Part shown: positions 18,612-40,885 of the stretch, in pieces
Numbering within the stretch: the stretch's first letter is position 1
How the letters are laid out: each line of letters starts with the position of its first letter
Assembly: GCA_030529605.1 (NCBI GenBank)
Contig: JAUMWO010000001.1
Location: forward strand, 1 to 61,161
Length of the DNA stretch: 61,161 nt
From: Bacillota bacterium
GTDB lineage: Bacteria > Bacillota > Clostridia > Peptostreptococcales > Acidaminobacteraceae
Reading direction: 5' to 3'
The notes under the pieces: generated by a model
Databases searched by the model: none
What the model saw: only the letters and a program-made list of their open reading frames with translations
What the model was told of the DNA's origin: nothing
Made by a program: the position numbers and the translations under genes

Positions 18612-20168
18612 CTACTGAAGCGGCGACACGATCCTTCCGATCGCTTCCAAGAACCTTCGATCGATTCCCCGCCGACGGAAGATCTCGAGATCGTACTTTT
18701 CGCACACCTTCAAATCCTCGTGGAAATCCTGCTCCAGTCGCAGGATCACGTCTTCGTCATACACAAATGCGTTGACTTCAAAGTTGATTTCCATCGAGCG
18801 CATGTCCAGGTTTGCCGTACCGACCGTCGCGATGCTTCGATCGCAGATCATCACCTTTGAGTGGACAAAGCCTTTGCCATACGCGTAAATTCGCACTCCC
18901 GCTTCCAGCAATTCCTGAATATTGGACTGCCCCGACCAATATACAAAAAAGTGGTCCGGATTCTTCGGGATGATGATGCGCACATCGACACCCGAGAGGG
19001 CGGCAACCTTGAGCGCCATCGAGATCGACTCGTCCGGCACAAGATACGGTGAAGTAATCCACAGTTTTTCTTTTGCGTCGGCGATCAATTTATGGAACGC
19101 ATGGTGCATCGATTTCCAACGATAGTCCGGTCCGGATGCGACGACCTGCACCATACAGTTCCCACAGTCATCTATTTTCGGAAAATACGCGCTTCCTGTC
19201 AAGTTTTGTTTGGCGACATAATTCCAGTCGTCCAGAAAAATGCTCTGCAGCGAGAGCACCGCTTCACCTCGAATCATCAGGTGCGTATCTCGCCAATATC
19301 CGAAGCGCTTGCTCTTGCCGAGGTATTCGTCGCCCACATTGAAGCCGCCGATGAAACCGATCTTGCCGTCCACGATCGCAATCTTGCGGTGATTGCGGTA
19401 GTTGAGATCGCGCGACAATGCCGGGAACAGCACCTCGAAGAAAGGATACAACTCGACGCCGGCCTCCTGTAGCTTTCTGCGGTAGGCGTGACTGAGCATG
19501 ATCGAGCCCACATCGTCAAAGACGATCCGCACTTCGACGCCTTGCTCCGCTTTGCGCACCAGCCGATCCGCCAATCGATTGCCGATCTCGTCGTCGCGCA
19601 GAATATAATACTCCAGATGGATATGATGCTCCGCCTGCTCGATCGCCTGGAACAGCGCTTCGAACTTCTCGGCGCCGTCCGAGATCACCGTCACCTGATT
19701 GTTGTCGGAGTACGGCGCATTGGCGCTCCGAAGCAACAGATTCATCAGACGCTCCGTCGTCGGAGATTCGATGTCGCTCAGATTGAGCAATTCCAATTGG
19801 TATGACGCGGCTTTCTCCATTCGATCGGAATGCTTCCGCGCCTTGATGTCGGCACGTCGCTTCTTTCGAAAACTGCGGCCGAACCAGATGTACAGGAAGA
19901 AACCGATGACCGGAAGCAAGACCAGCACCCCAACCCACGCGAGCGTCTTGGCCGGATTGGAATTTTCGAGCAAAATCAGCAACACGACCCAGATAATATT
20001 GAGACGAAACACGATCATAAACACGCGATACGCGAGATCAAGCCCCGGATTTTCAAAGCTCAGGTTATCAAAGAAACCCGCCAGGTACAGGAAGGCGAGC
20101 ACACACAACGCGACAAAGGACAGCGTATAGACCGTGAATTTAATCGCAAGATCCAGACGGCTTCGCAT
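18612..20168 (-). CDS. cls: Cardiolipin synthase (PLD superfamily)
   Basis: Trimmed to the ATG at 20168, which is preceded by GGAGGCGATC. Two HKD motifs (NHRKIAIVDG and HSKVMICD) and two N-terminal TM helices. Confidence 0.9.
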   Translation of the reverse strand: MRSRLDLAIKFTVYTLSFVALCVLAFLYLAGFFDNLSFENPGLDLAYRVFMIVFRLNIIWVVLLILLENSNPAKTLAWVGVLVLLPVIGFFLYIWFGRSFRKKRRADIKARKHSDRMEKAASYQLELLNLSDIESPTTERLMNLLLRSANAPYSDNNQVTVISDGAEKFEALFQAIEQAEHHIHLEYYILRDDEIGNRLADRLVRKAEQGVEVRIVFDDVGSIMLSHAYRRKLQEAGVELYPFFEVLFPALSRDLNYRNHRKIAIVDGKIGFIGGFNVGDEYLGKSKRFGYWRDTHLMIRGEAVLSLQSIFLDDWNYVAKQNLTGSAYFPKIDDCGNCMVQVVASGPDYRWKSMHHAFHKLIADAKEKLWITSPYLVPDESISMALKVAALSGVDVRIIIPKNPDHFFVYWSGQSNIQELLEAGVRIYAYGKGFVHSKVMICDRSIATVGTANLDMRSMEINFEVNAFVYDEDVILRLEQDFHEDLKVCEKYDLEIFRRRGIDRRFLEAIGRIVSPLQ

Positions 20169-20796
20169 TGATCGCCTCCAATTTATAAATCGGCATTCCT
20201 CGGGTCGCAAATTTGCTTTCGTATTCCGTCCGAACATTGTCCTCCGGTTCGTTCGAATGGAGATCCAAACTGACGAAGGAGAGGACGAACGGGGCACGCG
20301 AAAACTCGCAGAGCGAGAATTCGAACAGTTTGCGGTTGTCCGTCTTGAACTCGAGCTTGGCACCGGGCTTGAGCAGACGACTGTATTGCGCCAAAAATTC
20401 GCGATAGGTCAGGCGTCGCTTGTAATGCCCGCTCTTTGGCCACGGATCCGAAAAATTGAGAAACAGTCCGTCAAACTCGTCGTCCGCAAAGTACTCTGCC
20501 GCCGCGCGCAGATCGATCCGGGCAAAGCGGAGGTTGTGCGGCAGCGGATCGAGTTTTGACGCCTTCTTGACCGCTCGAATCAGAATCTCCGGCACCACAT
20601 CGACCATCAGATAGTCGACATCGGGATTGCGCCGCGCCTGCTCGATGATGAAGCCGCCCTTGCCTCCGCCGAATTCCGCAATCAGACGCGAAAAGCCCGG
20701 CCTGCGCCACGTCCCGCGCAACAAAGCGGGCTCTGCGACAAACAGCGGATAGTCGCAGAGCGCTTCTTCGGTACCGCGGATTCTACGAACACGCAC
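20140..20796 (-). CDS. trmB: tRNA (guanine46-N7)-methyltransferase
   Basis: Motifs EFGGGKGGF, FSDPWPK and KTDN. I prefer the GTG at 20796 ((M)RVRRIRG..., matching the MRMRHKPW-type TrmB N-terminus). It overlaps the pyrE stop by 1 nt (TAGTG). The track start is the TTG at 20835. Confidence 0.88.
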   Translation of the reverse strand: MRVRRIRGTEEALCDYPLFVAEPALLRGTWRRPGFSRLIAEFGGGKGGFIIEQARRNPDVDYLMVDVVPEILIRAVKKASKLDPLPHNLRFARIDLRAAAEYFADDEFDGLFLNFSDPWPKSGHYKRRLTYREFLAQYSRLLKPGAKLEFKTDNRKLFEFSLCEFSRAPFVLSFVSLDLHSNEPEDNVRTEYESKFATRGMPIYKLEAINAKPSGSCD

Positions 20797-27336: not shown

Positions 27337-28485
27337 TCACTCCGGAATTACTCGAATCACACGGCTTCCCAAGCTTTCGATCGACTGCAACCACTGTGCT
27401 CGATCGACTTGTTGGAAGCCGTTTTCAGGATTCATTACAAAAAAGGTGCTGTCATCAAAACCGTGAAGCACGGTCACGATCAAATTGACCGGAGCGACAA
27501 ATTCCTCTCCCGTCGTGATCATATGCCACCGATAATCGAAACGAGCCGGCGCCAGGTCCGTCGTCTGCCAAACCACCAGCGGGATCCCCTCTCGCACGGA
27601 TTCGACAAGCCGGGATTCGGTCGGTTGTTCCATGGCTTCCACGCGGAAACCCGTCTCGCCGAGTTTGTGCAGGTAATCCCGCGTCGCCTGCATCACCGGT
27701 TTTTCGTACACGATCCATCCTTGGGAATCCGACGGCTTGCCCGCAAATGCGATCTCCGGATCAGCACCGAACAACAGACCGTTTTGATAATAAAAATCTT
27801 CCGTCTTTAAATGCGCCGCAAGCGCATTTTTTTTCGCGTCCACATTCCAGTATTGAAGCACGGATGTCATCGAGGCGATCGCATCTCCGGTCGGGAGATC
27901 GATTCCCGTAAGCACTTCCGGAATTTCCAAAACACGGTTTACCACGCGCAGTCCGCCCTTGCCGTCGGATTCGAATCGCGTGATGCCGGGGACCGGTTCG
28001 ATCGAAAATCGAAGGATCACCTCCGGATGCTCGACCGTGAAAGCGATGCGCTCCTCGCGCGGAGCGAGAATCCCGTCCCCTTCCCGGCGCAATACGGCTT
28101 CGTACGCAGTGCGATACTGAGCGACAAAGGGCTCCCCTCCGGTCGTCAAGGTCGCCACCTCGTCTCCATTTTGAAAGACGGTCACCGCCGCCCCCGTGAT
28201 CTCCACGGCATCGCCGACCAGAGCGGAAGCGCGCACCTTGGCGACTCGCGGGTCGCCAAGGAACGACGCTCGCAATTTACCGAAAAAGCCGAGCGACTCC
28301 CCTTCCACGCCAGATACATACACGATGCGAGCATCGTCCGGCGCCGCATGATCCCTGCCGAAATAGTACTGTAGATTGCCCAGAACTCCGGTGCGCTGTA
28401 GAAAAAAAGCGACCGCAACGATTCCGCAAAGAATCGCGCCGATCACTGCAAATTTAATCATACGGGACAACATTGTGCTCTCCAT
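27337..28485 (-). CDS. Membrane-anchored protein with a C-terminal peptidase-C39-like (YvpB-like) domain; canonical Cys/His apparently absent
   Basis: ATG at 28485 with SD AGGAGG, followed by a TM helix. The C-terminal 180 aa resemble the C39_2 family (LPTGDAIASMTSVLQYW ... LVVWQTT ... VTVLHGFDDSTFFVMNP). The family call is from memory. Confidence 0.45.
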   Translation of the reverse strand: MESTMLSRMIKFAVIGAILCGIVAVAFFLQRTGVLGNLQYYFGRDHAAPDDARIVYVSGVEGESLGFFGKLRASFLGDPRVAKVRASALVGDAVEITGAAVTVFQNGDEVATLTTGGEPFVAQYRTAYEAVLRREGDGILAPREERIAFTVEHPEVILRFSIEPVPGITRFESDGKGGLRVVNRVLEIPEVLTGIDLPTGDAIASMTSVLQYWNVDAKKNALAAHLKTEDFYYQNGLLFGADPEIAFAGKPSDSQGWIVYEKPVMQATRDYLHKLGETGFRVEAMEQPTESRLVESVREGIPLVVWQTTDLAPARFDYRWHMITTGEEFVAPVNLIVTVLHGFDDSTFFVMNPENGFQQVDRAQWLQSIESLGSRVIRVIPE

Positions 28486-28554
28486 GAATCCTCCTATCGG
28501 AAGCGGCGTTCAAACACATGATCACAGCGCTTGCTTACCTCGCAAAGCTCCCTC

Positions 28555-29706
28555 TTAAATGTGGAGTTCGGACTCGCCGTCCCCCTGTGTCATCATCCAG
28601 CGGGATTCTCCGTCCAGGGAGTCGAGATCGACCTTGCCCGAAATGTCAACGGCGATCATCATATTGTTCAACAGCGGTCTTTTGTTGTAAGCAAATCCAC
28701 ATTGAAGCAGAGCGGACTGCATCGCCTCATTTCCGCCGATGCAGAGCGTGATGTACTCGACATTCGCTCCGTAAGCAAACTCGACGACCGCAGCCGCTAA
28801 AGCCTTCGCCTCGGACGGCCGGCAAAAGAATTCCGCGACCGTCAACATCGAATGTCCTTTTTGCGGACAAACGCGCACGACTGCAAAGCCTTCCGAGGCA
28901 TCCGCCCCCTCTTTGCGGATCGTGATCGCGGTATATTTCTTGTCCGGACGTTGGTTGTAGCGATAGTTCAAATAGCGATAATCGCGGACGATATGCGCCC
29001 CGAATTGATCGCGGTATTTCAAATAACAGGCTTCCACTTCCGCGGGAACCGCGTCGAGCACTTCCGATCGGTATCCTTTGAGCGCGGCACGCAGACCCAT
29101 GCGCCGGAACGAATCGTAAACTCCATAGAAGAAAGCCCCGACCATCGGAAGCAACGGAATCCGGATTCTTCGGCGCAGACGTGTCGCGATCCGCACCGGG
29201 CGCACAAACAGGCGTTTTTCAAACAATGTGCGCCATCCAAATTTGACATAGGCGCCGTAGGAGTTGGAATTGGCGAGTCCAAGCACCAGATCGAGACCAT
29301 GTTCCTTTGCCTTGGCCAGCGAGTTCTCCGTCATTTGACGAAAGATCCCCTGCCGCATATAGTCCGGATGGGTCATCGATTCGACGGAATGCGCAGATTT
29401 GTAGACCTTGCCATCGATATAGAGATCGAAGGGATAGAGACCGTCCGAAGCGATCACCTTCTTGCCCGACTCCGGCGCGTCCGACGACAGCGACTCGCGC
29501 ATCACATACATCATGTTTTCCTGCGGCGGATTGTATGGGTTTTGATTGAAATACCAATCATACATCGCATAATCGGTCGTGATGCCGCTGCCGAAGCTGA
29601 GACGACTCAACTCCACAAAGGTCTCGTAGTCCTGCTTTAGTTCGATGCTGCCGATTTCTCTCGGCGGATGAGTTTTCTGTATGTCTTTCGTTTTTTCTTG
29701 AGTCAA
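28555..29706 (-). CDS. GNAT-fold acyltransferase, large two-lobed (383 aa), specificity unknown
   Basis: TTG start at 29706, 7 nt after GAGGAG. GNAT-like core VESMTHPDYMRQGIFRQMTENSLAKAKEHGLDLVLGLAN..YGAYVKFGW. It lies 14 nt downstream of the Mur-ligase gene. Confidence 0.55.
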   Translation of the reverse strand: MTQEKTKDIQKTHPPREIGSIELKQDYETFVELSRLSFGSGITTDYAMYDWYFNQNPYNPPQENMMYVMRESLSSDAPESGKKVIASDGLYPFDLYIDGKVYKSAHSVESMTHPDYMRQGIFRQMTENSLAKAKEHGLDLVLGLANSNSYGAYVKFGWRTLFEKRLFVRPVRIATRLRRRIRIPLLPMVGAFFYGVYDSFRRMGLRAALKGYRSEVLDAVPAEVEACYLKYRDQFGAHIVRDYRYLNYRYNQRPDKKYTAITIRKEGADASEGFAVVRVCPQKGHSMLTVAEFFCRPSEAKALAAAVVEFAYGANVEYITLCIGGNEAMQSALLQCGFAYNKRPLLNNMMIAVDISGKVDLDSLDGESRWMMTQGDGESELHI

Positions 29707-29720
29707 ATTTCACTCCTCTT

Positions 29721-31292
29721 CTATTCTCGGTCCGGCACATCTTGTTCCGGCAAAAAGCCGCAGACACGCTCTCGAATCGGCTCCAAGATGCTCTCGTCTC
29801 CGTGTCGTTTGCTCAGAGCCGACAAAGCGATGTGTCCGCCGCTGTCCATCCCCTGGCAGCCCGCCAAGAGAATGACATCTCCCGGTTCCGCCGCGTCTAC
29901 GACCCGGCGCACGGCATCCGTCAACCGGTCATAGTAATCGACCGCGATCCCTGCCTGATTCATGCAGTCAAGGAATACCGCTTTTTCCTCCGGAGTGACG
30001 GCGTCTTTCGAGGTGACGGTATCGATGGACGAGCTTGCGACGATTCTGTTCACTCCGAGACGTTCGAGATGCTTCACCATCGCTTCGGCATTTTCCCGAT
30101 TGACCGTCGTCCCGCGGAAGCCTCGCACTCCATAGCAGAGATGGAAGGTCCGATAGCTCATTTTGTGGATGGTCTCGAAAGTGACATCGATGTTGCCCGG
30201 ATTGGCAAAGTGGTCGTCAAAGATTTTGAATTCGCGGTCATAGATGCATTCGAAGCGTCGTTCGACTCCTCGGAAATTCTCCAAACCCTGCTTGATATGC
30301 TTCGCATCGATTCGGAGACCTTGGTTGCGGTTTTTCGGCGAATCCAACATCGCGCGCACGATGGTAGCAGCTGCCAGAGCGTTGATGACATTGTGGTAAC
30401 CGGAGACATTCAACGTGATTTCGATCCGCTCGCCGTCGAGCAGGAAAGAGAATTTCCCTCTTCCTGTGCTCAGGTCGAGATGTTGCAGGCTACAAAACGC
30501 ATCCGGACGCTTTACGGAAAAGCCGTAGCATCCGGCCGCCGTCTCTCGAGTGAGTGCTCGGATCCGCTCGTCATCTTCGTTGTAAACGAAGATGGCATCT
30601 CGGGAAAGTCGTTTCACCGCGGACGCTTTGAGCCCGAAGTAGGTCTCGAAATCGCCGTGATCGTCGATGTGCTCCCGCGAAATGTTCGCAAACGAAAGGA
30701 CATCGTAATCGATGCCGTACACACGGTTCATCGCGATCGAGATCGATGACACTTCCATCGTACAGGCCTTGAAGCCGCTGTCAACCATGTCGCGCAGATA
30801 ACTCTGCAGATGGGTCGAGTCGGGAGTGGTGAGCAACGACGGCACGACGCGCTTACCGGTCCGGGCAAACACCGTACCGAGCAGACCGGACTCGATGCCG
30901 GCCGCCTTGATGATCTCATCGACCATAAAACTGGTGGAAGTCTTGCCATTGCTAGCAGTGATACCCACCATAATCAAAGAATCCGCCGGATGTCTCTCGA
31001 AATTCGCCGCCATGACGGCGAGCGCACGACGCGTATCCTTGACGCGAATGACCGCTGCCTCGGTCTCGACCTCAGCGCCGTCCTCGACGACGACCGCGAT
31101 TGCGCCGCGTCTTACGGCATCCGGAATATACTTAGCTCCGAGCTCCAGTTTCCCGACATGCGCGACAAAAACCCAGCCGCTTTCGATTTCTCGCGAATCG
31201 CAGCTCAGACCCTTGACATCCCATGTTTCAGTATCAGCGGAAGAACGATCGAATTTGTAATCGACACCTTGTAAAATATCTGCTAATTTCAT
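29721..31292 (-). CDS. Mur ligase family protein, divergent MurE paralogue
   Basis: The MurE-like layout is retained: GITASNGKTS P-loop, TTPDS, MEVSS, FANISREHIDDHG and SGYHNVINALAA. The C-terminal substrate-domain motifs are altered (see finding). Confidence 0.8.
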   Translation of the reverse strand: MKLADILQGVDYKFDRSSADTETWDVKGLSCDSREIESGWVFVAHVGKLELGAKYIPDAVRRGAIAVVVEDGAEVETEAAVIRVKDTRRALAVMAANFERHPADSLIMVGITASNGKTSTSFMVDEIIKAAGIESGLLGTVFARTGKRVVPSLLTTPDSTHLQSYLRDMVDSGFKACTMEVSSISIAMNRVYGIDYDVLSFANISREHIDDHGDFETYFGLKASAVKRLSRDAIFVYNEDDERIRALTRETAAGCYGFSVKRPDAFCSLQHLDLSTGRGKFSFLLDGERIEITLNVSGYHNVINALAAATIVRAMLDSPKNRNQGLRIDAKHIKQGLENFRGVERRFECIYDREFKIFDDHFANPGNIDVTFETIHKMSYRTFHLCYGVRGFRGTTVNRENAEAMVKHLERLGVNRIVASSSIDTVTSKDAVTPEEKAVFLDCMNQAGIAVDYYDRLTDAVRRVVDAAEPGDVILLAGCQGMDSGGHIALSALSKRHGDESILEPIRERVCGFLPEQDVPDRE

Positions 31293-31309: not shown

Positions 31310-31338
31310 ATTATAGCATTGATACGTCGGTCCGTAAA
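31310..31338 (-). promoter_or_regulatory. Extended -10 promoter for the MurE-like/GNAT operon
   Basis: The minus strand reads TTTACG-N17-TATAAT with TGC immediately upstream of the -10 element (TGnTATAAT). It lies about 18 nt upstream of the ATG at 31292. Confidence 0.45.
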
Positions 31339-31380: not shown

Positions 31381-31411
31381 CACAAGAAAACCGCCGATCA
31401 CTCGGCGGTTT
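31381..31411 (-). terminator. Rho-independent terminator after rubrerythrin
   Basis: The minus strand reads AAACCGCCGA-GTGA-TCGGCGGTTT followed by TCTTGTG. Confidence 0.6.
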
Positions 31412-31487: not shown

Positions 31488-32060
31488 TTAGTAATTGGTC
31501 TCTTTGAGTTCGAAGTATTCTTGCGGATGCTGACAAGCCGGACAAACACCCGGCGCACTCGTGCCCTCATGAACATATCCACACTTCGCGCACTTCCATC
31601 GGCGAGGCTCTGCTCGACGGAATACGAGTTCTTTCTCGATGTTCTCAGCGAGCTTGCGATAGCGATTTTCATGCTCGAGTTCCGCTTTCGCGATCATCTC
31701 AAATGCGACCGCTACCTTAGGGAAGCCTTCTTCCTTCGCTTTCGCCGCAAACGCAGGATAAAGATCCGCCCATTCTTCGTGCTCGCCATGCGCTGCAGCA
31801 AGAAGGTTTTCTTTCGTGTTGCCTACGACACCTGCCGGATACATCGCCGTGATCTCGACATCTCCGCCCTCCAGGAAATGGAAGAAACGATTCGCGTGAA
31901 TGCGCTCGTTGTCCGCCGTCTCCAAGAAGATCGCCGCGATCTGGTGGTATCCCTCTTTGGTCGCTTGCGACGCAAACATCTGGTATCGGTTGCGTGCCTG
32001 TGACTCACCTGCAAATGCTTTGAGCAGGTTCTTTTCGGTTTCCGTTCCTTTGATTGACAT
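31488..32060 (-). CDS. rbr: Rubrerythrin
   Basis: Di-iron four-helix bundle with ExxH motifs (EGYHQ..., ELEHEN). C-terminal rubredoxin-like CAKCG...CPAC. Confidence 0.95.
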   Translation of the reverse strand: MSIKGTETEKNLLKAFAGESQARNRYQMFASQATKEGYHQIAAIFLETADNERIHANRFFHFLEGGDVEITAMYPAGVVGNTKENLLAAAHGEHEEWADLYPAFAAKAKEEGFPKVAVAFEMIAKAELEHENRYRKLAENIEKELVFRRAEPRRWKCAKCGYVHEGTSAPGVCPACQHPQEYFELKETNY

Positions 32061-32110
32061 AATAACCCCCTATTCTCGTTCGCTCCCCGGAGGAAGCGAT
32101 ATTGCAAGAT

Positions 32111-32151
32111 GAGAAAAAGAACCCGGCGGGGTTTCGCCGCCCTCCGCCGGG
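32111..32151 (-). terminator. Rho-independent terminator after ferritin
   Basis: The minus strand has CCCGGCGG...CCGCCGGG stem arms followed by TTCTTTTTCTC. Confidence 0.7.
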
Positions 32152-32171
32152 ATTTCCATCATCTTGTCGTT

Positions 32172-32675
32172 CTAAGCTGTAGGTTCCGTGAACACACGAG
32201 TTTGGAACTCGCGATCGAGTTGCAGGAGACCGACTCCGCTGTCGCCGATCATCTTGAGTTCGTTCACGATCTGCTCTGCCGAGCTTTCTTCTTCGACCTG
32301 CTCGTCGATGAACCAAACGCAAAGGTTGCGAGTCGGACGATCCTTCTCTGCCTCCGCGATTTCAGCAATGTCGTTGATCATCTGCGTGACCAATTTCTCA
32401 TGCGCGAGTGCTTCCTCAAACGCGTGCAGTGGAGAGTTCCACTCAGTCTTCGGCTTTTCGATCGCGTCGAGCACCACGCGCGCACCGCGGTCGATCAGGA
32501 AGTTGAGGAACTTCATCGCATGGAACTGCTCCTCCTGGAATTGCACACGCATCCAGTTTGCAAATCCCGGAAGGTTGATGTCTTCGAAATAAGCAGCCAT
32601 GGAAAGATACATATACGCCGAGTAGAACTCCGCGTTGATCTGTTTGTTGATCACATTTTGTAATTTCTGATTCAT
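32172..32675 (-). CDS. ftn: Non-haem ferritin
   Basis: Trimmed to the ATG at 32675 (MNQKLQNVINKQINAEFYSAYMYLSMAAYF...QEEQFHAMKF). Confidence 0.9.
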   Translation of the reverse strand: MNQKLQNVINKQINAEFYSAYMYLSMAAYFEDINLPGFANWMRVQFQEEQFHAMKFLNFLIDRGARVVLDAIEKPKTEWNSPLHAFEEALAHEKLVTQMINDIAEIAEAEKDRPTRNLCVWFIDEQVEEESSAEQIVNELKMIGDSGVGLLQLDREFQTRVFTEPTA

Positions 32676-32685
32676 ATGTCTCCCT

Positions 32686-33054
32686 TTATGCTTTCCACAG
32701 ACCGTGGAGATTGCAGTATTCACGCGCGTAGAGCGCCTTTTCTTTCGTGTAGAATGTCGCAACCGGCGGTTCACCCGGCTTGAGGAAGCGAATCATCACT
32801 TCATTCTCCGTGACGAGCTCGATCCACTCGATCAAATGCTCTTCCGTCATCGGGTGGAGCGTCGTGCCGACCGTCACCTTGTAGCCGCCCTCGATCTCTT
32901 CGATCACAGGAACATGCTTCTCCGTCGCCTTATCCGCGGTGCGCTCGACCATTTTTTCCATCGGTTGTCCATTGCATTGGAGTTCAACGTCTCCGCCTCG
33001 CAGTTTCTCGACGATGACATCGCTTCCGCCACATTTGTAAACTTCTAACTTCAT
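32686..33054 (-). CDS. sor: Superoxide reductase (desulfoferrodoxin-like, degenerate centre I)
   Basis: Centre II ligands are intact (EKHVP, HPM, EEH, CNLHG). The N-terminal desulforedoxin-like domain keeps only 2 of 4 Cys. Confidence 0.9.
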   Translation of the reverse strand: MKLEVYKCGGSDVIVEKLRGGDVELQCNGQPMEKMVERTADKATEKHVPVIEEIEGGYKVTVGTTLHPMTEEHLIEWIELVTENEVMIRFLKPGEPPVATFYTKEKALYAREYCNLHGLWKA

Positions 33055-33078
33055 AGTAAACCCCCTTTGATCCTTCGA

Positions 33079-33486
33079 TCACGATTTTTTACATTCCTTG
33101 CAGACTCCGAACACCATAAACTGGCGTTCTCGAACCTCAAATCCGTCCAAACTTCTTCGCATCGCCTCCGCATCGATCTCCAAATCGATATCAAAGATCT
33201 TGCGGCAGACCAAGCATTGGAAATGCCCGTGAAAATCCATAATCGCGTCAAAATGTTGCTCCGAATCGTCGACATGGATGGCACGCACAATTTGTTTTTC
33301 AACAAAGAGCTTCAGTGTGTTATAGATTGTGGTTTTTGACAGAGTCGGCATCGACGGTCCGAGCGCTCCATAGATCTTATCGACGGTCGGATGGTCGTAA
33401 TTGTCCATCAGATACTCGTAGATACGAATCCTTTGTACGGAAGGCTTGATCCCATTCTCTTTTAATAGTTCAACAATGCGGTCCAT
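33079..33486 (-). CDS. perR: Fur-family regulator, PerR-like by context
   Basis: QRIRIYEYL wHTH, HGH motif, and two CxxC pairs (CLVC, CKEC). It is embedded in an oxidative-stress gene cluster. Confidence 0.8.
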   Translation of the reverse strand: MDRIVELLKENGIKPSVQRIRIYEYLMDNYDHPTVDKIYGALGPSMPTLSKTTIYNTLKLFVEKQIVRAIHVDDSEQHFDAIMDFHGHFQCLVCRKIFDIDLEIDAEAMRRSLDGFEVRERQFMVFGVCKECKKS

Positions 33487-33848: not shown

Positions 33849-35222
33849 TTAATTAACTCGCTGTTCTCCGAGAACTAAATTCAATTCCATAAAAGTTCCA
33901 TTGCGATAAAGACCAATTTTGATGGGCTCCCCCGCATTCTTTCCGCTGAGGGTCGCGCTGAGTTGTTGCATGGTCGTCACCGGCTCGTCGTCGATCGACA
34001 CTAGGTAATCGCCGATCTTGATGCCATATTGTTCGGCAGCGGCACCCGGGATCAAATCCACCACCCGAATCGCTGCCAGCTCTTCGGAATTGAAATCCGT
34101 CCCTCGGATTCCGATAAAGGCCTTGGTGCTGTAGCCCTTCTCGACCAATTGCGGGAAAATTTGACGGAGCAGCGACGACGGGATCGAAAAGCCGATTCCT
34201 TCGACTTCGACATCCTTGATCTTTGCGGTATTGATGCCGATCAGTTGTCCTGCCGCGTTGACCAGCGCTCCGCCGGAATTGCCCGGGTTGATCGCCGCAT
34301 CCGTCTGGATGTATTTCACCGAACCGGCGCCCTCAACGAAGCGATCGACCGCCGAGATGATGCCCGCCGTGACCGTGTTGGAATAGCCGATCGGGTTCCC
34401 GATCGCGATCGCCCGCTCGCCGACGCGGATATCGCCTGAATCCGCGATCTCAATCGGACGGATGTAGTCGATCTGATCCGCAGTCAAATCCGACTTTCGC
34501 ACCGAGAGCATCGCGATGTCCTTTTCGGAATCGGTCCCGAGCACGGTGGCTTTCGCGCGCGTCTTGGTGTTGAAATCGACATAGATGCTGCGATAGTCTT
34601 CGATCACATGGTAATTGGTGACCACGAGGATCGCATCCTCCGTCTCTTGAAGCACCACACCCGAACCGTTGCTCGTAAACGCCCCGACCGGGCCGAAACG
34701 CTCGACGCTGAATCCGTCGACATGAATGCCCGCCACGGACGGCAACACCTTTTGATAAATCTCCGGGATCGAATCCCCGGCCACCACCGTCTGCGGCATC
34801 ACATTTTCCACGCCGTTCTCGTTGATGTAGCGATGCACGGCGGAGCGAATCTCCGAGTTCCAAGTCTGCGAAGAAAGCTTCTCATAATTTGCCCGGATGT
34901 GGTCGTCGGTCGAAGCATATTTGACGCCGAGCCCGAACGCGACGACGATCAGGATGGCGGTGATACCGAGCCAGAGCACGGTCGCCAGCAACCGCTTGCT
35001 TTGCTGTCTTTTGTAAGCCTGCACCGTCGAGGCGAGCCCGCGGTTGACTTCGCGCACAACGACCTCGTTGAGCTTGCGCTCCGCGATGCGATCGATTTTT
35101 TCGTAGAGCGTGTTGAGCACATCGCTGTACGGATTGGCTCCGCGCCGGTCCTGCTGGCCGTCATTCGGACGCGGATCGGTCACGGAAGGTTGGGAAAATC
35201 GTTTCGAATCAAACTCTTGCAT
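33849..35222 (-). CDS. htrA: HtrA/DegP-family serine protease with TM anchor and PDZ domain
   Basis: Trypsin-like triad context (TNYHV, DIAML, GNSGGAL) plus a C-terminal PDZ domain. Confidence 0.9.
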   Translation of the reverse strand: MQEFDSKRFSQPSVTDPRPNDGQQDRRGANPYSDVLNTLYEKIDRIAERKLNEVVVREVNRGLASTVQAYKRQQSKRLLATVLWLGITAILIVVAFGLGVKYASTDDHIRANYEKLSSQTWNSEIRSAVHRYINENGVENVMPQTVVAGDSIPEIYQKVLPSVAGIHVDGFSVERFGPVGAFTSNGSGVVLQETEDAILVVTNYHVIEDYRSIYVDFNTKTRAKATVLGTDSEKDIAMLSVRKSDLTADQIDYIRPIEIADSGDIRVGERAIAIGNPIGYSNTVTAGIISAVDRFVEGAGSVKYIQTDAAINPGNSGGALVNAAGQLIGINTAKIKDVEVEGIGFSIPSSLLRQIFPQLVEKGYSTKAFIGIRGTDFNSEELAAIRVVDLIPGAAAEQYGIKIGDYLVSIDDEPVTTMQQLSATLSGKNAGEPIKIGLYRNGTFMELNLVLGEQRVN

Positions 35223-35616
35223 TCCGTGCTCCTTTCTGATTTTTCGGAATCTTTATATACAATACCCCGGAGGCATAACTCGCTTCGATCTGATTCTCGT
35301 CGATCGACTCGATGTAAAACGAACGCTTGTATTTGCCGTAGCAACGCTCGCCCCGAATCAAAGTTCTGCCGTCCGTCGGCGTTCCGCGCGAACGGTACGC
35401 TTCGATTTCCAGATAATTGTCTTCGTACTGAATGTGAATATCCTGGATCGAAATCCCCGGAAGTTCCGCTTCAATATAGAAACATGCGTCGTCGGAATAG
35501 ACGTCGACATGGAAGGAAGTCGCGTTTTCGCCGCAGTTATACGGTCGCTCGTTCGTACGATGCGATGTCACCTCGTAAAACAGTAGGTCGAGCGCTTTTT
35601 TATGTGTTTGCTTCAT
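35209..35616 (-). CDS. Hsp20/alpha-crystallin family small heat-shock protein
   Basis: Trimmed to the ATG at 35616. The alpha-crystallin domain reads FHVDVYSDDACFYIEAELPGISIQDIHIQYEDNYLEIEA...ERCYGKYKRSFYI...ASYASGVLYIKIPK. Confidence 0.75.
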   Translation of the reverse strand: MKQTHKKALDLLFYEVTSHRTNERPYNCGENATSFHVDVYSDDACFYIEAELPGISIQDIHIQYEDNYLEIEAYRSRGTPTDGRTLIRGERCYGKYKRSFYIESIDENQIEASYASGVLYIKIPKNQKGARNARV

Positions 35617-37048
35617 GATGATTACTCGCTTTCTTAAAAATCTGCACCGGAATCGTAAAGATGAACGCCACGCCGATGTCCTCATTGGAGTACACCTCGA
35701 TCGTCTCATTGTGGGCATTGATGATTTCGCGCACGATCGAGAGACCGAGTCCGGACGATCGCTTTTCCAATCCACGGGATGCATCCAGTTTTTCAAAACG
35801 GTTCCAAATCCGCGCTCGTTCCTCCGGCGTCATCACCTTGCCGGTGTTGCTGATCCCGACATAGAATTTCTCATTTTTGAGCTCGGTTCGGATGCTGATC
35901 GCCCCCCCGACATCGACAAATTTTGTCGCATTGTCGAGCAGATTGTAGACGATGCGCTGGATGCCGTTGACATCGCCGTGCGCCAGAACATGCTCACGAT
36001 GCAGGTCGATATTGAGCTTGACCTGCTTCTCCAAAATAATGGTCTCAAACGAATCGAGCACGGTAAGGATCAATTGATTGAGGTCAAAATCGGTCTTGGA
36101 AAGCACCAGCTCGCCCGATTCCATCTTGGCAAGGTCGAGCAGGTTGTTGGACATGGTCAGCATCCGGTCGCATTCGGAGACCACGATGCCGAGGTACCGA
36201 TCCTGCTTCTCCCGATCGATGGTTCCGTCGAGAATCCCCGCGGTGTAACCTTTGATGGTCGTCAGAGGCGTACGGATATCATGCGAGAAACTCGACACGA
36301 AATTGCGACGCGCCCGCTCCTGCTTCTGGATGTCGTTGGCCATCTTGTTGAACGCATCAGCGAGTTCCGCCAGCTCATCCGTCCCGTTTTTTCTTCCCTT
36401 GATCCGCTGATCGAGCTGACCTTTGGCGATCTTGTCGGCGGATACTGCGATCGCCCGGATCTCGGAAGTCATTCGATTGGTGAGCAGATAGATGGAAACC
36501 AGCGCCAGGAAGGCGACGAGAACGAGCGAAACAAAGACGATCAAGGACACACGCGTGATGGTGTCGGCAATCTCGAGCATCGGCAAGCTGACAAAAATCG
36601 AGAACCGCTGCTCGCCGACACGTAGAGGAACTCCGACACGAAGCATCCGTTCCCGGTTGACGCCTTCGTTGACCAATGTCTTGGTGACTCCGCCCTCTCG
36701 GACATTTTGCCAGTCCGCATGCAGGCGCTCGACATCGGATTCGGTCAGACTGCCGAGATCTTGGTCGGTCCCGTAGATTCCGCCCTCTTCATCGACCAAC
36801 CATATCGTTCCACCCGAGTAACTGTCGAGCAAGAGCACCTGCTCCTTGACCAGAGACAGACTGATCCGATCGACATAACTCGCGTTGAGCAATGTCTCAT
36901 AATTGCCGATACGCGCCCGGATCTGTCCCGTTTCCTTTTCGATGAAATAGTTTTCGAGCGCAATCCGTACCCCGACGACGATCAGGATGAAGGAAAGCAG
37001 GAAGAGCAGCAGATACACGAACGAGAACTTTCGAAAAATCGAGTTCAT
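35600..37048 (-). CDS. Sensor histidine kinase (2 TM, HAMP, HisKA, HATPase_c)
   Basis: H-box SFSHDIRTPLT, N-box LLDNATKF and G-boxes (GLGLSIV). Confidence 0.9.
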   Translation of the reverse strand: MNSIFRKFSFVYLLLFLLSFILIVVGVRIALENYFIEKETGQIRARIGNYETLLNASYVDRISLSLVKEQVLLLDSYSGGTIWLVDEEGGIYGTDQDLGSLTESDVERLHADWQNVREGGVTKTLVNEGVNRERMLRVGVPLRVGEQRFSIFVSLPMLEIADTITRVSLIVFVSLVLVAFLALVSIYLLTNRMTSEIRAIAVSADKIAKGQLDQRIKGRKNGTDELAELADAFNKMANDIQKQERARRNFVSSFSHDIRTPLTTIKGYTAGILDGTIDREKQDRYLGIVVSECDRMLTMSNNLLDLAKMESGELVLSKTDFDLNQLILTVLDSFETIILEKQVKLNIDLHREHVLAHGDVNGIQRIVYNLLDNATKFVDVGGAISIRTELKNEKFYVGISNTGKVMTPEERARIWNRFEKLDASRGLEKRSSGLGLSIVREIINAHNETIEVYSNEDIGVAFIFTIPVQIFKKASNHHEANT

Positions 37049-37052
37049 ACGA

Positions 37053-37742
37053 TCAATCGTTGACCTTAAACTTGTAGCCTACGCCCCAAACGGTCTTGAT
37101 CTCCCAGTTTGTGCCGGGCTTATCGAATTTTTCGCGCAGCCGCTTGATGTGCACGTCGACCGTGCGCGTCTCACCGAAGAAGTCATAGCCCCAGATTTTG
37201 TCGAGGAGCTGCTCCCTCGTAAACACGCGATTCGGATTGCTTGCGAGATAAAAGAGCAGTTCGATCTCCTTCGGCGGAAGCTCGAAGGTCTCCCCGAAAT
37301 ACGTCACGACATAATTATCGAGGTTAATGGTCAGATGATCCAGTTCAACCACGCCTTTACTTTCCGGCGTCTCCGCGACTTTCGCACGGCGGAGCACTGC
37401 CTTGACGCGCGCCGCCATTTCCTTTCCATCAAATGGTTTCACGATATAGTCGTCCGCACCGAGCTCGAGTCCGATGATCTTGTCGAGCGTCTCGTCTTTG
37501 GCGGTGACCATGATAATCGGAACTTCAGCGATCTTTTTGATTTCTTTGAGCGTATCGTAGCCATCCATTCCCGGCATCATCAAGTCAAGCAAAATCAGAT
37601 CCGGCAAGGTTTGTCGAGCACGTTTGACCACCTCTTCGCCATTCGCGAATCCCTCGACTTCATAGCCTTCTTTGTCGAGATAGAGTTGGATCAATTCCCG
37701 GATATTCGGATCGTCGTCCACGACATAAATCTTCTTGTTCAT
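37053..37742 (-). CDS. OmpR/PhoB-family response regulator
   Basis: Trimmed to the ATG at 37742 (MNKKIYVVDDDPNIREL, SD GGAGAGGAG). Receiver domain plus a winged-helix C-terminus (TVWGVGYKF). Confidence 0.93.
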   Translation of the reverse strand: MNKKIYVVDDDPNIRELIQLYLDKEGYEVEGFANGEEVVKRARQTLPDLILLDLMMPGMDGYDTLKEIKKIAEVPIIMVTAKDETLDKIIGLELGADDYIVKPFDGKEMAARVKAVLRRAKVAETPESKGVVELDHLTINLDNYVVTYFGETFELPPKEIELLFYLASNPNRVFTREQLLDKIWGYDFFGETRTVDVHIKRLREKFDKPGTNWEIKTVWGVGYKFKVND

Positions 37743-37914
37743 GCGATCTCCTCTCCGCGTAGGCATTTGAGCCTCTACGCTCTCATAACGCATTCATTAT
37801 AGCCTCTCGCGAGGAGTCAAAAAACATCAGTAAAGACATTATGTGTAAATAAATTATGTCGAAGCCGCTTCGAGCGATAGCCGGAGAGAATGTATGTAAG
37901 CGATAAAACATCAT

Positions 37915-39532: not shown

Positions 39533-40885
39533 TTATGCCCAGATCTCATCGTCCGTAGGGACTTTGATTTTTGCGCTGAGCGGCGCAATGCGAGTGATAT
39601 TGAGCAGATGCTTGTAGGTGAAGTTCTCGGAAATCGAGTTATTTCCCCACGAGCCGCAGCCCAGAGTGTTGGTCACGGCGAGACCGTTCTGCATCGATCC
39701 GCCCGCCGTTGTAGCCGACGGAGCGTTGACCACAAAGCGCGAGACATTCAGCTCGCTGCCGGCCTTGATGATATTGCCCTGGTTGTTCGAGTGGATCGCC
39801 GCCGTGTGACCGCTTCCCTCGAGGTTGAGGTTGGTCTTCGCGATCAGAATCGCTTCCTCGAAATTGTCGTACGGATATGCCGAGAGCACCGGGCACATCT
39901 TCTCTTTGGAGATCATATCCGCAGCGCCGTAACCCTCGGACTCGAGCACGAGCACACGAGTGCCTTCCGGAATCGCGATTCCCGCCTTGTCCGCGATGAA
40001 CTTCGGCGATTGACCGACGATGTCGCCCGCGAGGTGACCGTCTTCAAAGATCGCACCGACCACTTTCGCTTTGTCCGCCATCGGTACGATGTACGCTTTG
40101 CTCGCTTCGAATGCCTTCATCACTTCTTCGCGCTGATCGCGTGGGTAGATGAAACTTTGCTCGCCGGAGCAGATGATGCCGTTGTCGAAGGTACGACCAG
40201 CGACGACTTTCGCAGCGGCCGCCGCATAGTCGATATGGCGATCCAAGATGACTTGGACATTCCCTGCGCCGACACCGAAGGACGGCTTTCCGGAGGAGTA
40301 CGCCGATTTGACCATCGCCATACCGCCCGTCGCAACGACGACATCCGCTTCCTTCATCAGCTCGCTCGTCTTCTCGATGGAAGGCTCGGCGATGATTTGG
40401 ATCAGGTTCTCAGGTACATTGAACTTCTTGAGGTTTTCCTTGATCAGGCGAACCGTCTCGCCGGAGCATCCTTTCGAACGCGGGTGCGGCGCGATAATGA
40501 TCGCATTCTTTGTCTTGAGGGCAAACATGATCTTGGACATCGGGGTGACGATCGGGTTGGTGGTCGGTGTGATTCCCGCTACGACGCCGATCGGCTTCGC
40601 CACTTCGATCAAACCGGTACGATCGCAGATGCTCAGAATACCCATCGACTTCTTGCCGCGAATGTCGTTCCAGATCGCTTTGGATTTGCCTTTGTTCTTG
40701 GCAACCTTGTCTTCGTAAACGCCCATGCGCGTCTCTTTGACCGCCATGTCCGCGAGCATTTCCGCATTGTCGTACACGGTTTTACCGACCGTCTTGACGA
40801 TCTGATCGACCGTATCCTGGTCGAAGTTCAGCGCGTATTCCGCTTGCGCTTCACGCGCCTTTTGAACCATTTCCTTGATGTTCAT
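39533..40885 (-). CDS. sucD: CoA-acylating succinate-semialdehyde dehydrogenase
   Basis: Closely resembles Clostridium kluyveri SucD along its whole length (AEMLADMAVKETRMGVYEDKVAKNKGKS..., GIICSGEQS, LGCGSWGNNSISEN, ...DDEIWA). Confidence 0.9.
   Translation of the reverse strand: MNIKEMVQKAREAQAEYALNFDQDTVDQIVKTVGKTVYDNAEMLADMAVKETRMGVYEDKVAKNKGKSKAIWNDIRGKKSMGILSICDRTGLIEVAKPIGVVAGITPTTNPIVTPMSKIMFALKTKNAIIIAPHPRSKGCSGETVRLIKENLKKFNVPENLIQIIAEPSIEKTSELMKEADVVVATGGMAMVKSAYSSGKPSFGVGAGNVQVILDRHIDYAAAAAKVVAGRTFDNGIICSGEQSFIYPRDQREEVMKAFEASKAYIVPMADKAKVVGAIFEDGHLAGDIVGQSPKFIADKAGIAIPEGTRVLVLESEGYGAADMISKEKMCPVLSAYPYDNFEEAILIAKTNLNLEGSGHTAAIHSNNQGNIIKAGSELNVSRFVVNAPSATTAGGSMQNGLAVTNTLGCGSWGNNSISENFTYKHLLNITRIAPLSAKIKVPTDDEIWA

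Follow-up and report, generated by a model that had tools for sequence, protein, structure and literature searches.

Closest described systems

The ligase encoded at this locus resembles bacterial MurE, the UDP-MurNAc-L-Ala-D-Glu:meso-DAP or L-Lys ligase (PDB 2WTZ/2XJA, 4C12, 1E8C), with which it shares the three-domain fold at a TM of 0.77-0.79. In Mur ligases, the N-terminal and central domains hold the nucleotide-peptide acceptor, which is UDP-MurNAc-L-Ala-D-Glu in MurE, and the C-terminal domain binds the incoming amino acid. The ligase keeps the P-loop, DSR, TTP, EVSS and NxSR(D/E)H motifs and the carbamyl-lysine position of MurE, but its C-terminal domain contains none of DYAHTPD, GCGGDRD, DNPR/DNPA and GKGHE (20 bits to the murE model), and its gene is located outside a dcw cluster and paired with a GNAT gene. 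That domain is clearly homologous to the C-terminal domain of the archaeal pseudomurein ligase pMurE, or Mur-delta (PDB 6VR8, 7UFP, 7TZI; NCBIfam NF053648), as represented by the motifs DD..(H)NP..I, (A/V)RG.RG..(V/I)N and LL.G(A/C)QGMD and a longer insert with S-x-D/E-x-V. The acceptor of pMurE is UDP-Glu-Ala and not a MurNAc peptide, and the addition of lysine to UMP/UDP-Glu-Ala in vitro was shown in 2026 (PMC12996149). Archaeal pMurE genes share a cluster with the gene of an ATP-grasp ligase (PMC10117817), and a Bacillota sister clade of the present ligase shows the same arrangement. Unlike pMurE, the ligase has a bacterial host and no MraY-like neighbour.

The best structural matches of the GNAT protein were the Eis family (M. 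tuberculosis Eis, M. abscessus Eis2, B. anthracis 3N7Z, E. faecalis 2HV2/2I00) and the N-myristoyltransferases, with a match probability of 1.0 and a TM of ~0.57 over ~355 columns. The tandem lobes, the acyl-CoA loop and a conserved extreme C-terminus are shared, but the identity is only 13-15% and the TM stays below 0.6. To our knowledge, no Eis-like enzyme coupled or fused to a Mur ligase has been described. In Enterococcus faecium, an ATP-grasp D-Asp ligase (Aslfm) and an aspartate racemase (Racfm) decorate the L-Lys side chain of the precursor with D-Asp. This system is similar in that a decorator of the position-3 side-chain amine is encoded with a helper, and the sister clade has an ATP-grasp ligase, which we infer to be a D-Asp ligase, with a TIGR00035 racemase; the partner at the present locus, in contrast, is an acyl-CoA-type GNAT, with neither ATP-grasp ligase nor racemase. 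The third protein of the locus matched the YvpB-type C39-like protein 3ERV (PF13529) at E = 1.6e-6.

Organization of the locus

The window analysed here is a stretch of 61,161 nucleotides of a Bacillota bacterium (contig JAUMWO010000001.1). The three co-directional minus-strand open reading frames described in an earlier note, which was made from the sequence alone, were all recovered, and the features of the region are as follows.

29721-31292, minus strand: ligase gene, 523 aa, ATG start
30978..31292, minus strand: ligase residues 1-105, MurE/MurF-type N-terminal UDP-binding domain with the DSR motif (PF01225)
30312..30977, minus strand: ligase residues 106-327, central ATPase domain with P-loop TASNGKTS, TTP, MEVSS, NISREHIDDHG and K222
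29724..30311, minus strand: ligase residues 328-523, pMurE-type C-terminal amino-acid domain and family-specific tail with a conserved RVCG
28555-29706, minus strand: GNAT gene, 383 aa, TTG start, two-lobed Eis/NMT-like acyltransferase
27337-28485, minus strand: C39-like gene, 382 aa, ATG start, membrane-anchored C39_2-like pseudo-peptidase
31310..31338, minus strand: promoter-like site upstream of the ligase gene, TTTACG-17-TATAAT with TG extension, a consensus match only
~31385..31410, minus strand: hairpin ACCGCCG-AGTGAT-CGGCGGT followed by a T-run, read directly from the sequence
29713..29720, minus strand: Shine-Dalgarno sequence AAGAGGAG of the GNAT gene, immediately downstream of the ligase stop codon

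The extended -10 promoter noted earlier was found by the promoter scan (31338-31310; 10/12 matches, TG present), which detected 7 promoter-like sites in the region where 2.6 were expected. The hairpin and T-run, which the terminator scan did not list, are likely the terminator of the upstream rubrerythrin-like gene and would form the 5' boundary of the unit. The Shine-Dalgarno sequence claimed for the GNAT gene is present; it does not lie inside the last codons of the ligase gene, as had been thought, but in the 14-nt spacer after the TAG stop codon (29721-29723). With a spacer this short, translational coupling from ligase to GNAT is plausible. The 69-nt gap before the C39-like gene contained an AGGAGG and, according to the scan, no terminator-like site, and the C39-like gene is probably co-transcribed with the pair. 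No dcw cluster was present within the window, in agreement with the earlier note. The window also holds murC (15604-17055), glmU and the gene of an LCP transferase; murC and glmU are 13-17 kb away from the ligase-GNAT pair, in a genome whose mur genes are dispersed.

Mosaic architecture of the ligase

All motifs quoted for the ligase, namely GITASNGKTS, TTPDS, MEVSS, FANISREHIDDHG and GYHNVINALAA in the first two domains and DDHFANPGNI, LCYGVRGFRG, SSSIDT and LLAGCQGMD in the C-terminal region, were found in its translation. The Pfam domains Mur_ligase (30.1 bits), Mur_ligase_M (129.2 bits) and Mur_ligase_C (41.7 bits) scored well above their gathering scores. The predicted structure of the whole protein had a pLDDT of 93.2 and superposed better on MurE than on pMurE (TM 0.73).

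Domain-wise scans of NCBIfam separated the protein into two parts. The N-terminal domain matched bacterial MurE models best (62.8 bits) and pMurE not at all, and the central domain scored 169.3 bits against bacterial MurE models versus 24 bits against pMurE; residues 18-327 together reached 145 bits against M. tuberculosis MurE. The C-terminal domain, with DDHFANPGNI, VRGFRG, SSSIDT...KD and LLAGCQGMD, gave 127.9 bits (E = 4e-37) with the pMurE model versus 20.1 with the MurE subfamily model, and in the PDB it matched pMurE chains only (7TZI, E = 1.5e-20; 6VR8 and 7UFP, 9e-17). The view of a divergent MurE-like enzyme with its divergence concentrated in the C-terminal amino-acid-binding domain thus held up. 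The domain is not an unrecognised rewrite, however, but of pMurE type, and the mosaic of bacterial MurE and pMurE is common to at least 120 Bacillota proteins, which no curated equivalog model covers and on which no paper was found. Against TIGR01085 the ligase scored 225.4 bits, where the cut-off is 257.3, and it fell below the cut-offs of all MurE equivalog models, which confirms that it lies outside the housekeeping MurE models; against the pMurE model the whole protein reached 155 bits, where the cut-off is 600. The scan of curated models also agreed with the earlier note in excluding MurT/GatD, CapB and cyanophycin synthetase.

Across 49 family members, the P-loop, E180, H208/H212 and K222, which is at the carbamyl-lysine position, are invariant, as are the pocket motifs DDH.AN, RG.RG, D430 and GxQxxD; within GCQGMD, at least 90% of the members keep G481 and M482. 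D32, S33 and R34 of the DSR motif are invariant in the close clade. In the phylogeny, the GNAT-linked ligases formed one clade adjoining a larger sister clade, and both were apart from canonical MurE. Close-clade ligases scored 220-242 bits against the murE subfamily cut-off of 257.3, which sister-clade members exceeded. In the sister clade, the ligase of Halobacillus litoralis (L004) adjoins an ATP-grasp ligase and an asp_race racemase (TIGR00035), that of another locus (L005) neighbours an ATP-grasp ligase, murC and a PF00912 transglycosylase, and that of Anaerosphaera sits within a recJ-relA-dtd-aspS housekeeping block; the ATP-grasp gene is missing at two of the four loci. In the close clade, one ligase (P0011, L121) is a neighbour of ftsZ and lacks a GNAT partner.

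The GNAT protein and its pairing with the ligase

The predicted structure of the GNAT protein (pLDDT 91.9) is a two-lobed tandem GNAT, with 3N7Z, 2HV2, Eis2, Eis and NMT as the top Foldseek matches. Its Pfam domain is Acetyltransf_9 (PF13527; 52.0 bits, cut-off 25), and no curated NCBIfam family matched. The Eis-type acyl-CoA loop Y-x-R-Q-G-I-F-R is kept, with Q119 and G120 invariant, and QGDGE.EL is conserved at the C-terminus. Of the earlier description as a large two-lobed Fem/Eis-like enzyme, the two lobes and the likeness to Eis and NMT stood, while Foldseek and the loop spoke against a Fem-like protein.

The ligase and GNAT genes were found as a pair in four unrelated contexts with different flanking genes each time: they are separated by 14 nt in the window, by 7 nt at L116 and by 45 nt at L122, and they overlap by 13 nt at L117-L120. 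The paired ligases span 52-100% identity across these neighbourhoods. In a fifth case, the 911-aa protein P0005 from one 6-kb assembly contig, the ligase (residues 1-509) is fused to the GNAT (534-911). This recurrence supports the functional tie between the two proteins that had been suggested. GNAT relatives at 37-46% identity adjoin no Mur ligase; GNAT-only relatives often lie beside cell-wall genes encoding an SLT transglycosylase, a glucosaminidase or an SLH protein.

The C39-like protein

The third gene encodes, as described earlier, a protein with an N-terminal hydrophobic anchor and a C39-like domain (Peptidase_C39_2, PF13529; residues 198-353, 45.8 bits, cut-off 24), and an extra 140-residue region, absent from YvpB-type proteins, lies between the two. 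The family has 1227 representatives at E <= 1e-3. The catalytic Cys, present in 142 of 148 aligned relatives, is replaced by Asp201, and the catalytic His, present in 145 of the 148, by Ile336; each is the sole such substitution in the alignment. No homologue of the third gene was present in the 123 related loci fetched, and a word-based search of 5.8 billion proteins returned only a near-identical copy (99%). The gene is judged to be a catalytically dead, species-specific neighbour outside the conserved unit, with no part in the mechanism.

Proposed mechanism and alternative explanations

We tentatively favor a two-gene operon of Mur ligase and GNAT as the functional unit, a possibility to which we give somewhat less than an even chance, in which the ligase would extend UDP-MurNAc-L-Ala-D-Glu by Lys or Orn, whose free amine the GNAT would acylate. 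The ligase would use ATP to activate the γ-carboxyl of D-Glu as an acyl phosphate and then join L-lysine or a closely related dibasic amino acid, for example ornithine, and the GNAT would transfer an acyl group from acyl-CoA to the remaining free amino group of that residue on the cytoplasmic precursor, so that position 3 of the stem peptide would be capped. In a less likely order, the GNAT would pre-acylate the amino acid, which the ligase would then add. Lysine is proposed because the C-terminal domain is of pMurE type and pMurE adds lysine (PMC12996149); the specificity would be carried over by analogy from an archaeal enzyme whose C-terminal domain is ~30% identical and whose acceptor is different. 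Some facts weigh against this mechanism: the partner enzymes seem to be optional, since P0011 is without GNAT and two of the four sister-clade loci are without ATP-grasp, and the GNAT family is independent of the ligase, since its relatives occur away from Mur ligases. Some type-B peptidoglycans are reportedly acylated at position 3 (Schleifer and Kandler, 1972), but we know of no enzyme identified for acyl-CoA-dependent acylation at this position, which also counts against the mechanism, as does the limitation of the fusion to a single 6-kb assembly contig.

The pair might instead make a non-peptidoglycan product, a soluble or envelope-linked N-acylated peptide on a UDP-linked or free carboxylate, with the GNAT supplying or capping the amino acid and the ligase forming the amide. 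Such a product could be a UDP-peptide resembling that of pseudomurein, a compatible solute like the N-acetyl-dipeptides, or a small secondary metabolite. CapB, CphA, FPGS and CfbE are Mur-ligase-fold enzymes that act outside murein. CfbE has been described as such (PMC10117817), and the candidate promoter of the pair, its location outside the dcw cluster, flanking genes that vary in every lineage, as for an accessory cassette, and close-clade scores under the murE cut-off would all suit this explanation. We nevertheless consider it unlikely, with the acceptor-holding N-terminal and central domains, including DSR and TTP, being the best conserved and matching strongly only bacterial MurE models, with sister-clade members that pass the murE cut-off near murC and a peptidoglycan glycosyltransferase, and with no transporter, tailoring or regulatory genes accompanying the pair. 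Less probable again is that the ligase is the only housekeeping MurE of the organism, a third sequence type, and the GNAT an ordinary acetyltransferase of unrelated substrate on the same transcript. Dispersed mur genes, the location of the GNAT-less ligase next to ftsZ, the housekeeping block in Anaerosphaera and the GNAT relatives without a ligase are consistent with it, but the pairing recurs, tight or overlapping, over a wide range of ligase identity and once as a fusion, and chance co-transcription rarely outlasts such recurrence. The housekeeping half may well hold and is compatible with the favored mechanism too, so that only the unrelated GNAT is a true rival.

The tandem architecture of the GNAT is also that of FemX/FemA, and bridges of D-amino acids have been described as the work of ATP-grasp enzymes, those of L-amino acids or glycine as the work of GNAT-fold Fem enzymes (PMC2922099). 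On this basis the GNAT could be an aminoacyl-tRNA-dependent transferase that branches the ligase-added lysine with an L-amino acid or glycine, in a role equivalent to that of the putative ATP-grasp D-Asp ligase of the sister clade but with a GNAT fold. This is improbable in view of the Pfam scan, in which PF02388 (FemAB) was not matched and Acetyltransf_9 was, of the top 50 structural matches, all of them Eis-family proteins or N-myristoyltransferases with no Fem protein, and of the conserved acyl-CoA pyrophosphate-binding loop. Least credible is the three-gene module of the earlier note, in which the membrane-anchored C39-like protein would process or transfer the product of the pair outside the cell. 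Its co-directional position 69 nt downstream, its own AGGAGG, the lack of an intervening terminator-like site in the scan and the anchor suit such a role, but the gene is absent from all 123 related loci fetched, so that the module fails the synteny test set beforehand; together with the single near-identical copy in the word search and the lost catalytic dyad, this largely refutes the three-gene model and its extracytoplasmic papain-like activity.

On the favored mechanism, a capped position 3 would parallel the sister clade, where genes for an ATP-grasp ligase and an aspartate racemase accompany the same type of ligase. The ligase-GNAT pair probably makes a modified cell-wall building block.

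Organization of the ligase-GNAT locus

Three open reading frames were found on the minus strand, and every motif that the earlier note had quoted for them was present in the translations.

29721-31292, minus strand: MurE-like ligase, 523 aa
28555-29706, minus strand: GNAT-fold protein, 383 aa, TTG start codon
27337-28485, minus strand: C39-like third protein, 382 aa
31338-31310, minus strand: promoter-like site from the site scan, TTTACG-17-TATAAT with a TG extension

The promoter-like site was located just downstream of the hairpin and T-run that close a rubrerythrin-like gene. The GNAT gene possessed a Shine-Dalgarno sequence, as had been claimed, but this was not located inside the last codons of the ligase gene; AAGAGGAG sat in the 14-nt spacer past the ligase stop codon. 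The third gene followed 69 nt past the GNAT gene with its own AGGAGG, and no terminator-like site was detected in this 69-nt gap.

Directly upstream of the ligase gene, the translations of 31488-33486 (minus strand) resembled rubrerythrin, a ferritin-like protein, desulfoferrodoxin and a Fur/PerR-type regulator, and from these sequences the run looked like the kind of oxidative-stress cluster that anaerobes typically carry. At 33849-37793 (minus strand), genes for a WalK/WalR-like two-component system (243 bits with the YycF model, under the cut-off) adjoined an HtrA-type serine protease gene; together they form an envelope-stress set a few kb away from the ligase, and nothing evident connects the two. 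Four genes at 39533-44876 and 48383-50353 (both minus strand) scored as an acylating aldehyde dehydrogenase, an iron alcohol dehydrogenase, a butyryl-CoA:acetate CoA-transferase-like enzyme and an HpaB-family protein. The set looked like succinate-semialdehyde/4-hydroxybutyrate fermentation, and genes for a sigma-54 PrdR-like activator and a CitMHS transporter lay near it.

Domain composition of the ligase

Membership of the Mur ligase superfamily was established by the three Pfam domains (PF01225, 30.1 bits; PF08245, 129.2 bits; PF02875, 41.7 bits; all above their gathering scores) and by the catalytic motifs TASNGKTS, MEVSS (with E180), NISREHIDDHG and K222 at the carbamylation position. The residues N115, G116, K117, T118, E180, H208, H212 and K222 were invariant in the alignment of 49 relatives. 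Among the NCBIfam models, the whole ligase was closest to those of MurE, yet it fell under every cut-off (225.4 bits against 257.3 for TIGR01085, and 264.7 against 373 for the best MurE equivalog, NF001126). The model of pMurE, the archaeal pseudomurein ligase also called Mur-delta (NF053648), gave 155.2 bits over residues 90-486 against a cut-off of 600. MurT/GatD, CapB and cyanophycin synthetase had been dismissed as identities of the ligase, in agreement with family-model scores far under the cut-offs (27.1 against 800 for MurT and 41.9 against 850 for cyanophycin synthetase) and with no CapB hit among the NCBIfam models.

Best scores of the three ligase domains scanned separately against NCBIfam

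N-terminal domain, residues 1-105: bacterial MurE 62.8 bits; pMurE no hit
Central domain, residues ~106-326: bacterial MurE 169.3 bits; pMurE 24 bits
C-terminal domain, residues 328-523: bacterial MurE 20.1 bits; pMurE 127.9 bits

The match of the C-terminal domain to the pMurE model (E = 4.4e-37) covered profile positions 302-458. Judged by these scores, the ligase is a mosaic of bacterial-MurE-like N-terminal and central domains and a pMurE-type C-terminal domain, and by similarity the first two would be of the MurE type that binds UDP-MurNAc-L-Ala-D-Glu. The search against solved structures gave the same division, with residues 18-327 aligned to Mycobacterium tuberculosis MurE (145 bits) and residues 329-486 aligned to the pMurE chains of Methanothermobacter (7TZI) and Methanothermus (6VR8, 7UFP). 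When the C-terminal 197 residues were searched alone, pMurE chains were the sole PDB matches (E = 1.5e-20 and 9e-17). The predicted structure of the ligase (pLDDT 93.2) had an overall MurE fold, and superposition gave TM scores of 0.77-0.79 with the M. tuberculosis and S. aureus MurE and 0.73 with pMurE.

The motifs of the C-terminal domain differed from canonical MurE and were shared with pMurE. DD..(H)NP..I took the place of DYAHTPD, (A/V)RG.RG..(V/I)N took the place of GCGGDRD, and the DNPR region was replaced, as in pMurE, by a longer insert with S-x-D/E-x-V. The sequence LLAGCQGMD, located where MurE has AGKGHE, matched the LL.GAQGMD of pMurE. The earlier view of a divergent MurE-like ligase whose difference lies in the C-terminal domain was borne out by the low MurE score of that domain beside those of the other two, but its reading of this domain as a novel rewrite was overstated, for the "rewritten" motifs are those of pMurE.

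Beyond GCQGMD, residues ~487-515 (~29748-29834 in the window) formed a C-terminal tail common to the bacterial family. Canonical MurE is without this tail, which lies past the aligned pMurE segments. R509 was nearly invariant in the 49-sequence family alignment, and C511 and G512 were invariant in the close clade described below, forming an RVCG motif that several sister-clade members did not have.

A family of Bacillota ligases

The family comprised at least 120 Bacillota proteins. Among the best 120 homologues, RG.RG was present in all and GCQGMD also in 117, and DNPR, DNPA and GKGHE were found in none of these closest relatives. Wherever the host was named, it belonged to the Bacillota (Halobacillus, Lysinibacillus, Neobacillus, Cohnella, Filifactor, Anaerosphaera, Acidaminobacter and Tissierellia). 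In the neighbour-joining tree, canonical MurE was separate from this family, 13 proteins at least 50% identical to the query formed one close clade, and a larger sister clade with ~40-45% identity stood beside it. Some sister-clade proteins passed the murE subfamily cut-off and the close clade remained under it; the equivalog cut-off was reached by neither. In both clades, the ATP-site residues and those of the C-terminal domain pocket were invariant or nearly so, which argues that the two would accept incoming amino acids of one kind.

Members of the family are currently annotated as "Mur ligase family protein" or, misleadingly, as DAP-adding MurE. Literature searches on the bacterial family, on Mur ligase and GNAT clusters, on a MurE paralogue with D-aspartate ligase and on UDP-MurNAc peptide acetylation returned nothing that described the family or the pairing. 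A profile scan of genome contigs with the close-clade alignment was keyed on the generic P-loop, and 79 of the 80 loci held ordinary MurE, only the Syntrophomonadaceae locus L011 being in the family.

Pairing of the ligase with the GNAT protein

In the close clade, the ligase gene was followed by the GNAT gene in four unrelated neighbourhoods, and the two were joined in a single protein in a fifth context.

Neighbourhood 1: the window
Neighbourhood 2: SLH protein, old-yellow-enzyme (OYE), ligase and GNAT, with a 13-nt ligase-GNAT overlap, in at least 5 assemblies
Neighbourhood 3: band-7/ABC block with ligase, GNAT and OGG
Neighbourhood 4: ligase, GNAT, OGG and asparaginase, on a related contig
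Fifth context: fused protein P0005 of 911 aa, on one 6-kb contig, with ligase at 1-509, a 25-residue linker and GNAT at 534-911

Short contigs indicated three further ligase-GNAT pairs. The pair or close relatives of it occur in the assemblies GCA_041795455.1, GCA_041791225.1, GCA_041777285.1 and GCA_002754915.1, besides the one that contains the window. The proposed coupling of the ligase to the GNAT protein was supported by the four neighbourhoods and the fusion. One close-clade ligase (P0011, 50% identical; locus L121, 8001-11532) stood without a GNAT gene and was directly followed by ftsZ and nrdR, which hints that this ligase type may serve as the division-cluster MurE in some genomes. 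At L117 (9651-13249), and likewise at L118-L120, genes for serine recombinases, a YhcG-like nuclease and an HTH regulator came directly after the OYE-ligase-GNAT genes; they resemble an integrated mobile element that borders on the operon.

The third protein contained a Peptidase_C39_2 domain (PF13529, residues 198-353, 45.8 bits against a gathering score of 24) and matched 3ERV (E = 1.6e-6). No homologue of its gene was present in any fetched locus. The word-based search found solely a 99% identical copy, and the exhaustive HMMER search found 1227 distant relatives, the best with 37% identity. In the alignment of 148 relatives, 142 kept the catalytic Cys (motif LPNGCE) and 145 kept the catalytic His (NLHCVV); the third protein had Asp201 at the Cys column and Ile336 at the His column, each the sole such substitution in the alignment. 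By its sequence, it is a membrane-anchored pseudo-peptidase, species-specific and outside the conserved unit. The earlier note, correct on a divergent MurE-like ligase coupled to a GNAT protein, was wrong to count a C39-like activity as the third member of the module, since synteny and both catalytic residues were missing.

The GNAT protein

Pfam placed Acetyltransf_9 (PF13527) at residues 25-159 of the GNAT protein with 52.0 bits against a gathering score of 25. Eis-like structures were matched weakly by sequence (3N7Z, E = 2.8e-4), and the acyl-CoA loop aligned with that of 3N7Z. Q119 and G120 were invariant in the nine close-clade GNAT proteins; in the 50-sequence alignment, G120 was invariant and Q119 nearly so. 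The Eis-type acyl-CoA loop was kept, as was QGDGE.EL at the extreme C-terminus. The model built from the 50-sequence alignment (pLDDT 91.9) had 3N7Z, 2HV2, Eis2, Eis and N-myristoyltransferases as its best structural neighbours (TM ~0.57, range 0.50-0.58). The Eis family, with two lobes and an SCP2-like domain in a hexamer, and the N-myristoyltransferases, with two lobes and no SCP2 domain, were about equally close to the model. The FemAB domain PF02388 gave no hit in Pfam at E <= 0.1, and no Fem structure was among the top 50 structural neighbours. Because of these Eis and N-myristoyltransferase neighbours, the lack of a Fem match and the conserved acyl-CoA loop, the protein is judged, from the predicted model, to be a two-lobed N-acyltransferase that probably depends on acyl-CoA, rather than an aminoacyl-tRNA transferase of the Fem type. 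From the former description as a Fem/Eis-like two-lobed protein, the Eis-like and two-lobed parts are retained and the Fem-like part is dropped.

None of the distant GNAT relatives (37-46% identity) was found beside a Mur ligase, including those from the metagenome-contig scan with the GNAT alignment (38-46%). They often adjoined cell-wall genes, for ArgRS with an SLT transglycosylase, a glucosaminidase or an SLH protein, and these neighbours are suggestive. Three arrangements recurred at the ligase-less loci (L007-L010, L105 and L107, with the GNAT gene at ~6000-9100; L094, L098, L099, L102, L103 and L110; and L093), namely SLH-GNAT-split LysO-family exporter, MutS2-(PhzF)-GNAT-ArgRS-SLT transglycosylase and GNAT-glucosaminidase. 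The LysO-family lysine exporters were considered as a sign of a lysine substrate and given little weight, since the SLH-GNAT-LysO arrangement was confined to one lineage.

Sister-clade neighbourhoods

In Halobacillus litoralis (L004, 4672-8308), the sister-clade ligase gene lay between genes for an ATP-grasp (Ddl/CPS-like) ligase and a TIGR00035-type amino-acid racemase that passed the cysteate-racemase CuyB model as well. In the metagenomic locus L005 (4633-7533 and 8384-12036), the ligase followed an ATP-grasp ligase, with murC and a PF00912 monofunctional glycosyltransferase nearby. The ATP-grasp gene was missing at two sister-clade loci, L011 and Anaerosphaera L123, where the L123 ligase lay within a recJ-relA-dtd-aspS block. 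An ATP-grasp ligase with a racemase is the kind of enzyme pair by which D-Asp is added to the L-Lys of the Enterococcus faecium precursor. The genus Halobacillus is described as having Orn-D-Asp walls; the one paper found on this point makes a general statement for Bacillus. The arrangement in L004 and L005 has the appearance of a genetic signature for Lys/Orn-D-Asp wall chemistry. A split cyanophycin synthetase, as another reading of the ATP-grasp and Mur ligases, was rejected as the leading one because of the MurE-type UDP-binding N-terminal domain, the score of 42 bits to cyanophycin synthetase and the location of L005 near murC and the glycosyltransferase.

Proposed mechanism and alternative readings

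We tentatively propose that the ligase and the GNAT protein make an acylated Lys/Orn stem precursor, a possible but less than even reading; from the homologies, the pairing and the fold we infer which substrates are used, in what order the steps run and what becomes of the product. The N-terminal and central domains of the ligase would bind UDP-MurNAc-L-Ala-D-Glu and ATP, and the pMurE-like C-terminal domain would position lysine or a closely similar dibasic amino acid, for example ornithine, giving UDP-MurNAc-tripeptide(Lys/Orn). The GNAT protein, plausibly coupled in translation and sometimes fused, would then acylate the remaining free amine using acyl-CoA; alternatively, it may make an N-acyl-amino acid that the ligase then uses. 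The ATP-grasp ligase and racemase would be the equivalent partner in the sister clade. For the pMurE of M. fervidus, ATP-dependent addition of lysine to UMP/UDP-Glu-Ala was demonstrated in 2026 (PMC12996149), and the pMurE genes of methanogens lie in a cluster with those for an ATP-grasp ligase and MraY (PMC10117817).

The ligase could also be the housekeeping MurE, which is compatible with the proposed chemistry and would turn a "paralogue" into a third type of MurE. No second MurE-like gene was present in the 61-kb window. The following genes lay scattered in it, none of them within a dcw cluster.

15604-17055, plus strand: murC, 427.7 bits against a cut-off of 335.1
12845-14224, minus strand: glmU
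11905-12927, minus strand: prs
17125-18090, minus strand: LCP-family glycopolymer transferase
18612-20363, minus strand: cardiolipin synthase

Since the cell-wall precursor genes are dispersed in this genome and mur genes occur outside a dcw cluster, location becomes a weaker argument for the ligase as an extra copy. A wider claim, which we regard as unlikely, is that the family represents a third type of position-3 ligase in Bacillota with the Lys domain of archaeal pMurE, hard-wired or fused in one lineage to an Eis-like GNAT protein for a novel cytoplasmic precursor modification, and marks the bacterial source or recipient of the pMurE C-terminal domain. One possibility under this claim is that lysine would be linked by its epsilon-amine as in pseudomurein, with the GNAT protein capping the alpha-amine to give a non-cross-linkable or specially cross-linked stem.

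Implications for MurE specificity and pMurE origin

If the acylated Lys/Orn precursor is real, MurE specificity in Gram-positives would include a third sequence type beside the DAP type and the Lys type of Staphylococcus and Streptococcus. The partner that modifies the side chain would be exchangeable in this type, either an ATP-grasp ligase or a GNAT protein, and some wall chemotypes would then be explained by the genes present. An acyl-CoA-dependent modification of the stem peptide would also be identified, for which we know of no assigned enzyme.

Lupo et al. (2025) recovered Mur-delta, that is pMurE, inside Bacillota MurE in some trees and preferred another topology (PMC11915815). A Bacillota family that carries a pMurE-type C-terminal domain on a bacterial N-terminal and central part bears on this disputed origin, and it supplies bacterial sequences for a domain-wise phylogeny of where the C-terminal domain arose.
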